Shown piece by piece: positions 35,530-39,041 of a stretch of DNA of 64,000 bases; position 1 is the stretch's first letter; every line of letters begins with the position of its first letter. Both the position numbers and the translations under genes were made by a program. Below the pieces are notes generated by a model. It saw only the letters and a program-made list of their open reading frames with translations, was not told the origin of the DNA and did no database searches. This DNA comes from an uncultured Methylomirabilota bacterium (GTDB lineage: Bacteria; Methylomirabilota; Methylomirabilia; Methylomirabilales; 2-02-FULL-66-22): NCBI GenBank assembly GCA_963705305.1, contig OY970067.1, positions 288,001 through 352,000 of the forward strand, given 5' to 3'.

Positions 35530-35737
35530 TTCACAACGTCCAGCCCCCGAACCCGCCTCGTGAATTCGGGTGACATTACGGTACCCCACGGCCGTTCATC
35601 CATGGAACCGCGGCCTGTCATCGATGTTCCTTTCGCGGCCGCGTTCACCGGCCCTCGCGAGCGTAGCGGCTGTGACGCGCGCGCGGGTCCGGTGCAACGC
35701 TTGGTCGGAGGCCCATTTTGCAGCATTCCTAGCGGGC

Positions 35738-36907
35738 TCACCCCACCATCGACCCAAAGATCAGGCCCAACACGTACGTGATGAGGGCCTCCCCCAAGCC
35801 GACGAGGGTCATCTCGGCGCCGCTGCGCCACGGACTCAAGCCGGTCACCACCGTCTTGGCCGCGCCGATCACGAAGTGGGCCACGGTGCTGATCACAAAC
35901 GAGGCAATGATCGCGCGATACCCGTAGGTGAAGAAGAACGGCACGATCGGGATGAAGGCGCCCACCGCCGTCGAGAGCGACGCCGACCAGGCGGCCGTCC
36001 ACGGATTGGGATAGGATTGCGCCGACAGGCCCAGCTCTTCACTCGCCAGCGTCTTGAGCGCGGAGTCCGGCTGCGTCATCAAGCGCGCGGCCAGCGTCTT
36101 CGCCTCATCCGGCGGCACCCCTTTGAGCTGGTAGAACAGCGCGAGCTCTTCCTGCTCCTCTTCCGGGTGCTGCTCCAGCTCCTGTCGCTCCCGACGCAGT
36201 TCCGCCTCGTTCACTTCGCGCTCGGCTTTGGTGGCGAGATACGCCCCGGATCCCATCGACAACGCGGAGGCCAGCATCCCGGCGAGTCCGGCGAGCAGCA
36301 CCGCGGGGCCGCCCGCGGTGGCACCCGCCACGCCCGAGACAATGCCAAACACCGAGCCGAGCCCATCGTTCGCCCCGTAGATGGCCTGCCCGATCCAGCC
36401 GCCGCCCCGCCGGTGCCAGCTCTCGCGATGCAGGATCGCATCCAGCATCGCCTGGGGCCCAAGCGGGACGCTCGAGGCTGGGGCGCTGATCTTTTGCATC
36501 GTGCCGCTATGTACCTTCTCGTCGTGCACGACGGCCTGAATTGCCGCGCGATCGGCGTCGCTCGGGGCCACTTGCGCCAGAGATTCGTACATCTGCGTAT
36601 CATCGTCCTCGTTGCTCTCGATACGCTTCAGGGCGTTGTCGGTGCCACTCTGCACCACCGCCCACCGCCACACCCGCTCGCGCAGCGACTCCCGATCGCG
36701 CGGCAGCGGCGCGCCGAGCTCGCGCAGACGCACGGCCCACCGCTCGCCATGGCGCTGCTCGGTTTCAGCCAAGGCCAGCAACACATTGCGCCGGACCTCA
36801 TTCGATTCGCGTCGGGCTAGCGCCCGGTATATGCGCTGGCTGCCCTGCTCTTTCTGCCAGGCGCGTTGGAGGCCCCGGATGAATGTTGCTTGATCAGTGG
36901 CAGCCAT
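35738..36907 (-). CDS. Rubrerythrin/ferritin-like domain fused to VIT1/CCC1 metal transporter
   Basis: ETEQRH and DEKVH ExxH motifs; IYGANDGL, ALSMGSGAYL, EELGL. Confidence 0.88.
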   Translation of the reverse strand: MAATDQATFIRGLQRAWQKEQGSQRIYRALARRESNEVRRNVLLALAETEQRHGERWAVRLRELGAPLPRDRESLRERVWRWAVVQSGTDNALKRIESNEDDDTQMYESLAQVAPSDADRAAIQAVVHDEKVHSGTMQKISAPASSVPLGPQAMLDAILHRESWHRRGGGWIGQAIYGANDGLGSVFGIVSGVAGATAGGPAVLLAGLAGMLASALSMGSGAYLATKAEREVNEAELRRERQELEQHPEEEQEELALFYQLKGVPPDEAKTLAARLMTQPDSALKTLASEELGLSAQSYPNPWTAAWSASLSTAVGAFIPIVPFFFTYGYRAIIASFVISTVAHFVIGAAKTVVTGLSPWRSGAEMTLVGLGEALITYVLGLIFGSMVG

Positions 36908-37119
36908 CGTAGTTTCCCCCTGTAGGTGCCTGCGCAATGGTTGCTATCACAACACAGGGCGGCATCGCCGGCCAGGTCGATTCATGCCATGCCCGGGTCC
37001 GACATCTATGAAACAGCCTTCGGGTCCCCACCTCCTTGGGAGAGTGCACATTGCCGCAGAGATTCGCGTATCCTTTCGCGGGCCGGTTTTGAAAAAATCC
37101 ACCCAGCGAATAAACCCTT

Positions 37120-37400
37120 CCGGCCGATCACGCGCAGGAGAGGCCAACGGTGGCGGAACCAAACCCGCAAGGGAAGCCGTCTTGAACCAGAGCGCTGGCC
37201 TACCGGCAAGCGGGATTGTATCCAAACCCTGGGGCCAAGGGAAGGGCCTTGCGGTCATACGTGACCCGGAGGCCAACGGGTCACTGGGGTGAGCCGGGAG
37301 ACGGCAGGGGCGACCCGAGCGACCGGAGTGCCGGGGGAGCGGACCCTCACTGGAGCGAAACACCCGTCCTCACCAGGCAGACGGCAGCAAACTGCCTGGC
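37120..37400 (+). ncRNA. Putative unannotated structured RNA or element
   Basis: Serial hairpins (CCC-GCAA-GGG, CCAG-AGCG-CTGG, GTGACCCG-N8-CGGGTCAC, GCCG-GGAGA-CGGC, GGG-GCGA-CCC, CCAGGCAG-N11-CTGCCTGG) and internal repeats; family not recognised. Confidence 0.45.
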
Positions 37401-38110
37401 CGTCCTCGTAGGGGCGGGCGTCGTCCAGTACTGGCACGTGGCCCTCCTGGCGACCTGCTACGGCCTGGCCTTCACCCTCGATATGCCCACGCGGCAGGCG
37501 TTCGTCGTGGAGATGGCGAGCAAGGCGGACCTCCCGAACGCCATCGCCCTCAACTCCAGCATGGTGAGCGGCGCCCGGATGGTGGGCCCCGCCATCGCCG
37601 GCCTGCGCTACGCGGTCCACACCCCCCTCGTGGCCCTGCCCCTGAGCCTCCTCCTGACCCTGGGGCTCTTCGTCACCAACCACAACGTCCTGGTGCCCCT
37701 GCTGGCCCGGGACGTGCTCCACGCGGGGGCCCACGGCTTCGGCCCCCTCATGGCCGCCGTGGGCACGGGGGCCATCCTCGGGGCGCTGGCCCTGGCGACG
37801 CTGCTGACGGGCCGCCCGCCCTTCGCCCTGCTCCTGGGCACGGCCGGCGCTGCCGCGGGCCTCACGCTGGCGCTCGCGGGGATCCGCTCCTTCGGGGCGG
37901 CCCTGCTCGCCTTGACCGGGGTGGGGCTGGCGCAGATGGTGTTCGTGGCGGCCTGCAACACCACGCTCCAGCTGGTGGTCCCGGACCGCATGCGGGGCCG
38001 GGTCATGAGCCTCTACGCCTTCGTGTTCGTCGGCAGCACGCCCCTCGGGGCGCTCTTCGTGGGCACGACCGCGGACTGGGTCGGGGTCTCGGCCTGCTGG
38101 GGCGGCGGGG
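37396..38110 (+). pseudogene. MFS transporter (MFS_3/DHA3-like) remnant, 5' truncated with internal deletion
   Basis: DMPTRQAFVVEM..DLPNAIALNS..ARMVGPAIAG joined directly to LRYA; NTTLQLVVPDRMRGRVMSLY; no N-terminal helices or start. Confidence 0.75.
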
Positions 38111-38318
38111 GTGGGCCGCGTCACCTGATCCCCTCGCCGAGCCGCCGTCGGGGGCCTGAGTGCTCGAGGGGAGTGCGATGCCCGGAGCCACGCGACTCGT
38201 GTGGGACACGCGAGCCGGGTGGGCCCCCATGGGCCGACCCGTCCATGGCAAATTCAGGGCTCAGACGGGCTGGTGTGACTGCCCGGAGGAGATCCGACGC
38301 CTTCTCGATTTGGCCGGG

Positions 38319-39041
38319 CTACGCACCGGAGGGCGCATCGATGCCGAGGTAGGCCGCCCGCACCTGCTGGTTGTTGACCAACTCGGCGCTCGTGCCGTCC
38401 ATGACCACCTTGCCGCTCTCGAGGACGTAGGCGCGCCGGACCAGGGTCAGCGCGCGGCTGGCGTTCTGCTCGACGAGCAGGATGGCCGTGCCCATGGAGT
38501 GGATCTTCTGGATCGCATCGAAGGTGGCATCGGTCACGACCGGGGCGAGCCCCAACGACGGCTCATCCAGCATCAGCAGCCGCGGCTTCAGCATGAGGCC
38601 GCGCCCGATCGCGAGCATCTGCTGCTCTCCGCCGCTCATCGTGCCCGCGACCTGGCTTCGGCGCTCGGCCAGCACGGGAAAGACGGAGAAGACCAGGTCC
38701 AGAGTGCGGCGCCGTTCCGCTTTGGCCCGCGGCGTGTACGCCCCCATCTCCAGATTCTCCTGGACGGTCATCTCGGTGAACACCTGGCGGCCCTCGGGCA
38801 CGTGGGCGATCCCCAGCTCGGGGACCTTGTAGGCCGGCAGGGAGTCGATACTCGCCCCCTCAAACGTGATGCGCCCCGACCGGAGGCGTATCAGCCCCGA
38901 GATTGCCCGCAGCGTGGTGCTCTTGCCGGCCCCGTTGGCGCCCAGCAGGCCGACCGCTTCCCCCTCGCCGATCGTGATGCTGATGTCGGCGAGCGCCGTC
39001 ACCGACCCGTAGCTCGCACTCACTCCAGACAGCGCTAGCAC
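38319..39041 (-). CDS. ABC ATPase (LivF-like)
   Basis: GANGAGKS, MSGGEQQM, LDEPSLGLAP. Confidence 0.9.
   Translation of the reverse strand: MLALSGVSASYGSVTALADISITIGEGEAVGLLGANGAGKSTTLRAISGLIRLRSGRITFEGASIDSLPAYKVPELGIAHVPEGRQVFTEMTVQENLEMGAYTPRAKAERRRTLDLVFSVFPVLAERRSQVAGTMSGGEQQMLAIGRGLMLKPRLLMLDEPSLGLAPVVTDATFDAIQKIHSMGTAILLVEQNASRALTLVRRAYVLESGKVVMDGTSAELVNNQQVRAAYLGIDAPSGA

Follow-up and report, generated by a model that had tools for sequence, protein, structure and literature searches.

The window analyzed here is a stretch of 64,000 nucleotides from an uncultured Methylomirabilota bacterium, in which the segment of interest, 37120-37400, is found between a VIT1/rubrerythrin gene and the remains of a transporter gene. 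In the following, G000 denotes the window's own genome, labels of the type G001 denote compared genomes and L-numbers denote individual loci. The VIT1/rubrerythrin gene is located to the left, on the minus strand (35738-36937; Pfam VIT1, E 2.3e-65). To the right, on the plus strand at 37395-38165, is a 5'-truncated MFS gene (MFS_3-type), identified by blastn against a paralog and by Pfam (MFS_3, E 2.8e-27); in the long open reading frame at 37216-38352, the match to MFS_3 does not begin before residue 128. The closest paralog, found from G000:C1:2147908 onward, is intact and spans 432 codons. Relative to this gene, the fragment in the window begins at about codon 111 and is missing two internal segments, of 138 bp and 46 bp, with blastn identities of 98% over 210 nt, 94.6% over 501 nt and 89.7% over 78 nt. 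From the start at about codon 111 and the internal deletions it follows that the MFS gene is a pseudogene and that the sequence between the two genes, i.e., 36938-37394, is non-coding.

The MFS homology starts at 37395 in comparisons with two paralogs and four relatives, and at 37412 in the comparison with a fifth relative. Position 37395 is found inside the last arm (37392-37399) of a hairpin, in agreement with a preliminary description of this DNA in which a 3' hairpin was reported to meet the decapitated MFS gene. Contigs from one DNA read run left 35928-37295 without cover and one 477-nt contig begins at 37395, an observation that has no bearing on the junction or on expression.

On the left-hand side, the orthologous region of G020 is 88.5% identical over 1378 nt, covering the VIT1 gene and its upstream region. 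The similarity ends at 37108, i.e., G020 shares 35734-37108 only, and at the breakpoint the window reads ...CCCAGC|GAATAAA and G020 reads ...CCCAAC|GTTGCG, with a boundary that is ambiguous by one base. Right of the breakpoint the sequences of G020 and the window are unrelated, and G020 therefore cannot serve as a clean empty site. The right flank of G020 was not found in G000, and the copy of the repeat (see below) that G020 itself harbors is without an orthologous filled or empty partner in G000.

Stems and the RNA interpretation

The preliminary description read 37120-37400 as an undescribed RNA or the RNA part of a mobile element. All stems and duplicated motifs on which it was based were found in place when the sequence was reread from 36600 to 37900. 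These are the hairpins CCCGCAAGGG (CCC-GCAA-GGG, 37164-73), GGGGCGACCC (37307-16), CCAGAGCGCTGG (37187-98), GGATTGTATCC (GGAT-TGT-ATCC, 37213-23) and GCCGGGAGACGGC (37293-305), the stem arms GTGACCCG/CGGGTCAC (37261-68 and 37277-84), the closing hairpin with arms CCAGGCAG/CTGCCTGG (37373-80 and 37392-99), and the duplicated motifs GAGGCCAACGG (37140 and 37269), CCAAACCC (37159 and 37222) and AAGGGAAG (37169 and 37237), together with GTGAG at 37289 and its two CTCAC partners at 37346 and 37369.

The density of stems, which had been taken as a signal of structure, does not exceed that expected by chance for this G+C-rich composition. The RNA minimum free energy of 37120-37400 is -120.4 kcal/mol on either strand, to be compared with dinucleotide shuffles (n = 200 per strand) at -118.6 +/- 5.4 kcal/mol for the plus strand (z -0.33; 66/200 shuffles fold as well or better) and -118.0 +/- 4.9 kcal/mol for the minus strand (z -0.49; 64/200). 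A search against Rfam, suggested in the preliminary description, matched no known family in the window, the local region or an intact copy. Specifically, Rfam 15 gave 0 matches at the gathering score over the whole 64-kb window and 0 matches at E <= 1 for an intact copy from a relative, while 36800-37600 at E <= 10 gave two sub-threshold chance matches with E 3-5 (15.9 bits vs a gathering score of 104, and 15.2 vs 50). No tRNA or tmRNA was detected by ARAGORN in 36000-39000, including at 37328-37345, which faintly resembles the 3' end of a tRNA.

For an alignment of 35 homologous copies, RNAalifold yielded no RNA-like consensus, i.e., only 7 pairs at -2.66 kcal/mol with a covariation term of -0.05; covariation is limited to one subterminal palindrome. 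Among the stems listed above, GGATTGTATCC alone is retained in the homologous copies, without any covariation. The GNRA hairpins are not conserved in the family; one of them, CCCGCAAGGG, corresponds to the 3' arm, here mutated, of a longer palindrome that relatives have preserved intact. The closing hairpin bridges the junction of two unrelated sequences, with one side in the insertion-sequence (IS) relic described below and the other in the MFS fragment. An RNA-gene identity for 37120-37400 is not supported by any of the tests run. The stems in the window are in part leftover DNA palindromes of a mobile element and in part chance pairing typical of DNA with ~70% G+C. Thus, of the original proposal the mobile element stands, as the non-coding end of an IS91-family member, and the RNA is not supported by Rfam, folding energy or the RNAalifold consensus.

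Three other identities were considered and set aside. A riboswitch or leader was rejected because the copies have no common downstream gene and their orientations vary; more generally, neither a recurrent neighboring gene nor a constant orientation to genes was found among the copies. A small open reading frame starting at a conserved ATG (MGIVSEPWG...) recurs in several copies, but the region after the ATG is variable and holds frame-breaking indels, so that it is not regarded as a gene. A guide RNA of the IS200/IS605 or IS110 type was dropped once the neighboring gene proved to encode an IS91-type transposase.

Distribution and copy structure of the repeat

A search for further copies, also proposed in the preliminary description, showed that the sequence is a multicopy repeat in genomes of the same genus. 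With the window as the query, matches at E <= 0.01 were found in 14 of 20 same-genus genomes, and 20 genomes from other families of the order gave only two short matches of ~27 nt. A better-preserved copy used as the query matched 16/20 same-genus genomes, with 23 matches in G007, 11 in G010, 7 in G008, 5 in G019 and 3 in G000, the window included; the window copy is the least similar (68%) of these three. A second long copy of the stretch was not found in G000. Alignment of 19 such places with the window revealed a sharp shared start, (C)GAATAAG, equivalent to window position 37108, followed by a well-conserved block of ~150 nt. When 185,579 species genomes were scanned for an exact pattern, 60 loci were obtained, the majority being chance matches in unrelated low-G+C taxa. 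A profile confirmed 16 of these loci, 14 of which are in records titled Candidatus Methylomirabilis, Methylomirabilales or Methylomirabilota, while one is on an Omnitrophota-binned contig and one is a partial copy in an Acidobacteriota bin.

Copies were counted in a profile search of the collected loci and of the whole of G000, which gave 53 matches, from which one doubly represented locus was removed. The outer end is kept at 37 distinct places, where the inner ends are found at profile positions ranging from 104 to 567, i.e., one end is fixed and the other is variable. Seventeen of these inner ends are located between 149 and 203 and eight at position 523 or beyond; the remaining 12 are scattered over 104-445 and include the window at 242 and one other that is cut by a contig end. 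A further 11 places, three of them in G000, hold the inner core only. No transposase remnant was detected beside the short copies in the available flanks. A solo copy in G010 is a discrete unit of 165 nt between flanks that are common to G005, where a 5.1-kb block is found instead. For a solo copy in G013, the search for an empty site returned only other repeats.

Association with an IS91-family transposase

Elements of the IS91 family move by rolling-circle transposition, catalyzed by a Y2 HUH transposase, and oriIS is the end at which the DNA is nicked and replication starts. As described in PMC13181058, the two ends of these elements, terIS and oriIS, differ, and oriIS is found at the right end, after tnpA.

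The preliminary description had advised looking for transposases beside homologs, and in relatives an IS91-family transposase gene does adjoin the repeat. At L018 the repeat is antisense to two overlapping open reading frames, with its outer end ~310 nt beyond them. The pair represents one IS91-family transposase with a single frameshift: the two parts score 264.8 and 157.9 bits on NF033538, "IS91 family transposase" (cut-off 125), and match the Pfam families Zn_Tnp_IS91 (E 1.4e-32) and Y2_Tnp (E 6.7e-39). C-terminal transposase fragments are contiguous with the repeat at five further loci (L017/L035, L040, L030/L036, L019/L039 and L041). In the seven long copies the alignment extends without interruption from the terminus across the 3' non-coding region and past the stop codon into the gene, and each of the seven stops at a different inner point. 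The C-terminal half of the transposase, used as a query, matched in 9/21 genomes of the genus and not in G000.

A second IS91 lineage (L032, L033) has a transposase with ~55% amino-acid identity to the first; L032/L139 harbors an integrase gene followed by a transposase gene and L033/L140 is truncated on the ter side. Approximately 400 nt after the stop codon this lineage displays a palindrome, then TTGGAC..AAACCGC and then GCTATGGGGATTG, a diverged counterpart of the repeat as compared by eye. On these grounds, the repeat is identified as the transposase-distal end of an IS91-family element. Judged from the sequences, the homologous end occupies the oriIS position of IS91 elements, 3' of the transposase, and a function as the origin in this lineage would follow from this position and from the analogy with IS91, IS801 and IS1294.

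A gene for a tyrosine recombinase precedes that of the transposase where the upstream region is available. At L018 this is an open reading frame matching Phage_integrase, and the order integrase then transposase is found at L018, L032/L139 and L034. The recombinase of the second lineage scores best on the integron-integrase model TIGR02249, with 183 bits, below the cut-off of 265.

Flank preference and palindrome in the relatives

The four bases that precede GAATAAG are GAAC in 10 and TAAC in 9 of 35 copies, and NAAC of any kind in 21. On the transposase strand this flank corresponds to GTTC or GTTA, within a fuller preference for GTTMGGC. Over seven positions the flank reads GCCKAAC (G22, C20, C28, T17/G11, A27, A26 and C32 of 35), with no conservation further out. 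The AAC bases belong to the flank and not to the element in both comparisons available, i.e., the window with G020 and G010 with G005 (...CTCAATC|GAATAAG in G010 vs ...CTCTATC|CTGTAG in G005).

Alignment columns 24-33 and 71-80 form the palindrome mentioned above, in which 91.1% of 350 cells are paired, as compared with 30-52% after a shift of the partner by 1-3 columns. Compensatory changes are present in five cells, and the covariation score was reached by 0/500 shuffles; a competing inner helix is less well kept (66%). Folded as single-stranded DNA, five intact copies each form a stem of ~16 bp with energies of -20 to -28 kcal/mol, at z -3.0 to -4.8 in four and -0.85 in the fifth. Four of these stems are paired throughout, contain one G-T wobble and lack bulged bases; the fifth has a small internal loop. 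This structure corresponds to the DNA palindromes that published elements carry in subterminal position at oriIS, and it is destroyed in the copy found in the window.

The copy in the window

An nhmmer profile built from the 7 long copies matches window positions 37104-37340 at profile positions 4-242 (E 1.4e-30), with an envelope to 37360, and the transposase stop codon is expected near profile position 318. The aligned relic of the oriIS-side (transposase-distal) end, delimited by nhmmer, blastn and the break in synteny, is thus located at 37108-37340 on the minus strand, which is the sense strand of the element, and has its outer terminus, GAATAAA, at 37108. By blastn it is 67-68% identical to L018, L017 and L019, and it is 75% identical to the family consensus (the range among copies being 62-96%). 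Beside the terminus, at 37104-37107, is the tetranucleotide CAGC (GCTG on the transposase-sense strand); the same position in the orthologous G020 site is occupied by CAAC (GTTG on the transposase strand). That the flank in the window is GCTG rather than GTTC counts against the assignment. The flanks are compatible with a target tetranucleotide beside oriIS, but the motif preferred in the family is longer and reads GTTC in only 10/35 copies.

The two palindrome arms, at 37120-37129 (alignment columns 24-33) and 37162-37171 (columns 71-80), are decayed. The 5' arm reads CCGGCCGATC where the consensus is CCGGCGGGCC, and the 3' arm, which holds CCC-GCAA-GGG, reads AACCCGCAAG where the consensus is GGCCCGCCGG. 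Five of the ten positions pair, vs 91.1% of cells over the 35 copies, and the single-stranded DNA fold of 37108-37190 reaches -11.4 kcal/mol (z -0.28), to be set against the -20 to -28 kcal/mol of the intact copies. The most conserved core of the family (consensus TTGAACTGAACCGCTGGCCTACAGGCTATGGGGATTGTATCCGAACCCTGGGGCCGAGGGAAGGGCC), in which the nearly invariant columns of the alignment are found, spans 37176-37252; it is matched in relatives at 84-93% identity and includes GGAT-TGT-ATCC.

Between the aligned relic and the MFS fragment there are 54 nt (37341-37394), outside the significant alignment, which are probably a further decayed part of the 3' region of the IS. Judged by eye in the alignment, the resemblance to the long copies runs on past 37340, and the last 35-54 nt (37341/61-37394) have no significant alignment to the family. 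The segment 37328-37359 has short matches elsewhere in G000, and 37341-37394 is partly like a short repeat that is dispersed in the genome. Overall, the relic covers 235-290 nt, counted from the outer terminus, of the ~310 nt of non-coding DNA that follow the transposase gene in intact relatives. Because it is inverted, the missing transposase gene would have stood to the right, on the minus strand.

A tblastn search of G000 with both halves of the L018 transposase gave no match at E <= 0.01. A search of G000 for the family PF04986 also gave 0 matches, but control genomes were equally silent. With neither a transposase, an integrase nor a ter end at the locus or in G000, the assignment of the window copy rests on the homology of its non-coding end to copies found elsewhere, and that of the intact relatives on curated protein models together with end features that match published descriptions. 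On this basis, 37108 to about 37360-37394 is very probably what is left, in an inert state, of the non-coding ori-side end of an insertion sequence of the IS91 family. The window holds a relic rather than an element because it contains no genes of the element and no intact palindrome, and no transposase is found at the locus or in G000. Given the decayed palindrome and the lack of a cognate transposase in the genome, the copy probably does nothing at present.

Relation to known elements

ISCR elements are defined by the lack of terIS and by a transposase clade of their own, while Helitrons are eukaryotic and encode a Rep-helicase. ISfinder lists members of the IS91 family that carry a gene for a tyrosine recombinase, and attC hairpins of integrons carry extrahelical bases. 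According to PMC13181058, the IS91 family has subterminal palindromes at oriIS and generates no target duplication, the target tetranucleotide adjoining oriIS is CTTG for IS91 and 5'-GTTC for IS801 and IS1294, and 82 bp of the right end are sufficient for IS91. The preprint bioRxiv 10.1101/542381 places the tyrosine recombinases of IS91 and IS3 transposons in an integron-like subgroup.

The relatives resemble IS91, IS801 and IS1294 in several respects. Their end is located 3' of a transposase that passes the NF033538 cut-off and matches Zn_Tnp_IS91 and Y2_Tnp; it carries a subterminal palindrome and adjoins GTTC or GTTA, of which GTTC is the target of IS801 and IS1294; and, to the extent that the available copies reveal it, there is no inverted-repeat relationship between the two element ends. 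Outside ISfinder, nucleotide similarity to a described IS was not detected. In contrast to IS91, IS801 and IS1294, the 3' non-coding region is ~310-400 nt in this lineage, vs the 82 bp that suffice in IS91; the flank preference extends to ~7 nt (GCCKAAC), unlike that of IS801 and IS1294, with GTTC in only 10/35 copies; and a tyrosine recombinase gene is found before the transposase gene. The integrase-then-transposase order at L018, L032/L139 and L034 is shared with the recombinase-carrying IS91 members. The window copy differs from the IS91, IS801 and IS1294 elements in that it has neither coding parts nor the palindrome.

The likeness to ISCR elements and Helitrons is mechanistic only: one end is common to the copies while the other varies, and fragments of adjacent genes may be captured. 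Like MITEs, the copies are short, non-coding, dispersed and derived from an IS end. Unlike MITEs, they have one IS end only, and no terminal inverted repeat is evident by eye (in the 165-nt solo copy of G010).

History of the locus

The simplest history that we infer would involve a single deletion. Insertion of the element, or of an already truncated copy, beside a GTTG-like target at ~170 nt upstream of the VIT1 gene would have come first. A single subsequent deletion, starting from ~290 nt inside the element, would have taken away what remained of it, along with the promoter and the first ~110 codons of the neighboring MFS gene, leaving two truncated pieces fused at 37394/37395. The copy has since decayed, with loss of pairing in the subterminal palindrome.

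A variant of this history, which is unlikely, involves capture instead of deletion. The ter-less IS fragment and the MFS piece could have arrived as one unit by one-ended transposition, as in ISCR-type capture. In this case, replication from the ori end of a truncated element inside an MFS gene would have run on into that gene, and the composite would have been inserted here. Capture is consistent with the position of the MFS fragment on the ter side of the relic, as the model requires, and with failed termination of IS91 and IS1294, which according to PMC13181058 occurs in 1-14% of events and results in carriage of adjacent DNA. A recent partial copy would also suit the 95-98% identity of the fragment to the 2147908 paralog, as compared with 83-90% to the second MFS paralog. 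Against these points, the 2147908 paralog is intact, with no IS relic at the equivalent position, and past the MFS stop codon ~22 nt of the window resemble the region downstream of the other paralog, a hint of an old resident copy. Furthermore, no right-hand limit of a captured unit could be drawn, and the right flank of G020 was not found in G000.

Alternative roles of the terminal module

It is conceivable, though distinctly unlikely, that the terminal module in the intact relatives doubles as a folded single-strand, attC-like site for the integron-like tyrosine recombinase of the element. According to PMC3053210, attC is a palindrome between RYYYAAC and GTTRRRY that spans 57-141 bp. The module likewise has a variable palindrome between a motif ending in AAC and an inward GTTGAAC, which fits GTTRRRY (in 23/35 copies), its span is within these limits, and the element encodes an integron-like recombinase. 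The 16-bp hairpin, the GCCKAAC flank, the inward GTTGAAC and the discrete solo units of ~165 nt scattered in genomes are compatible with such a site. Unlike attC, only 4/35 flanks fit RYYYAAC strictly, the AAC motif belongs to the flank and not to the element in the two comparisons, and extrahelical bases of the attC type are not seen in the folded intact copies. If such a site does exist, single-stranded circles made by the HUH enzyme would be coupled to insertion by the tyrosine recombinase, cassette-like mini-elements would be spawned and the window copy would be a dead example of these.

Because the terminal module of 150-200 nt is also found alone, it could in principle be a target of the IS rather than its end, i.e., an independent short repeat (a non-autonomous mini-element or a REP-like host repeat) next to which IS91 elements insert. 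The clustering of 17 out of 37 inner ends at 149-203 with no transposase remnant in the available flanks, the 11 core-only places (three in G000), the discrete unit in G010 and the fact that the module ends near ...GGGCCTTG would all be in line with such a repeat. Nevertheless, the alignment of the copy in the window continues past the module into the 3' region that is specific to the IS, as far as profile position 242, and the homology of the long copies is unbroken from the terminus into the transposase gene. In addition, the lineage with the ~55%-identical transposase has its own diverged module at the same place, a co-divergence that is expected of a part of the element and not of a target. 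The similarity past position ~150 fades gradually because the region is variable in all copies, so that the cluster of ends is partly an effect of the alignment. Taken together, these observations make an independent repeat very improbable.

That the stretch or its family encodes a structured non-coding RNA, i.e., a small RNA or the RNA part of a mobile element's mechanism, is hardly credible, in spite of a strongly conserved core of ~100 nt, one covarying hairpin and GNRA-like loops on the plus strand of the window, when weighed against the Rfam, fold and consensus results given above, the GNRA hairpins that are unconserved in the family, the lack of a common neighboring gene or orientation and the location of the covarying hairpin where IS91-type elements carry DNA palindromes (PMC13181058).

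Implications

With the stretch read as one end of an IS91-family element, a candidate "novel RNA" is eliminated and the truncated transporter gene can be understood as a scar left by an insertion sequence. For the window itself this matters little: the stretch is ordinary genomic debris, an IS tail against a broken transporter gene. The lineage to which the tail belongs, with a tyrosine recombinase and found in genomes labeled Methylomirabilota, may be undescribed, as set beside published descriptions of IS91 members. What sets it apart is the long conserved end on the ori side, the flank preference of 7 nt and the many copies that are truncated on the ter side or consist of a solo end, and it could serve the study of initiation, termination and fragment formation in rolling-circle insertion sequences.

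MFS pseudogene beside the IS relic

On the inner side of the IS relic, i.e., the window's remnant of the non-coding, oriIS-side end of an IS91-family element, lies an MFS gene (37395-38165, + strand) that is a pseudogene. About 110 N-terminal codons are missing, and two further losses are found within the remaining sequence: a 138-bp deletion bracketed by the 12-nt near-repeats CATCGCCGGCCT and CACCGCCGGCCT, and a second, frame-shifting deletion of 46 bp. The genome of the window (G000) harbors MFS paralogs at C1:2147577-2148875 and at about 4770512-4771900, and the identity of the pseudogene to one intact paralog is still 95-98%.

A short REP-like motif, composed of GTGCCGGGGGAGCGGACC followed by a CACAATTGAGC-like sequence, is repeated at intergenic places of the same genome (C1, around 353642, 376435, 1591519, 946510(-), 365673(-) and 3823091), often accompanied by CAATTG-type inverted flanks; window positions 37328-37359 are a partial match to this motif. 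In the relative G020, at L043:9933-13574 (contig C6), close to the ortholog of the VIT1 gene that lies on the outer side of the relic, an unrelated MFS-like ORF is apparently interrupted by two ORFs, which by eye look like IS21-type istA and istB.

Flanks and variants of the IS end

In the alignment (A1) of 35 copies of the IS end from relatives, a 7-nt flank preference, GCCKAAC, was identified (examples are L024:5004-5011 and L054:704-711). This motif exceeds in length the tetranucleotide that PMC13181058 gives for IS91, IS801 and IS1294. The flank bears a loose likeness to integron core sites, and the recombinase of the relatives' element is integron-like. Five of these copies (L019, L055, L058, L061 and L068) carry a palindromic insertion of ~30-45 nt (CCTGCCTGTGCGTGC..GCACGCAGACAGG; A1 columns 106-148), which in every case follows CCGC at a single site within the module and resembles a very small palindromic element nested in the IS end.

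Distribution of solo modules, fragments and copies binned outside Methylomirabilota

A solo module of 165 nt is found in the relative G010 (L025:4980-5144, contig C7), where another relative, G005, harbors between identical flanks a 5.1-kb block (L138, C1:345242-350336) with a higher A+T content and large ORFs. This site reflects either two hits at the same point or replacement of one insertion by the other. Elsewhere in G010, five partial copies reside within ~12 kb of a single contig (L020, C61:29900-41100), three of which have lost the same internal segment, profile positions ~184-307, counted from the outer terminus inward; this cluster is a local pile-up of IS-end fragments.

Among contigs binned outside Methylomirabilota, a near full-length copy (profile 2-500, E 1.8e-134) is present on a contig in a record titled Candidatus Omnitrophota (L085), and a partial core is found in an Acidobacteriota bin (L079). 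These two copies reflect either mis-binning or horizontal spread of the IS end.
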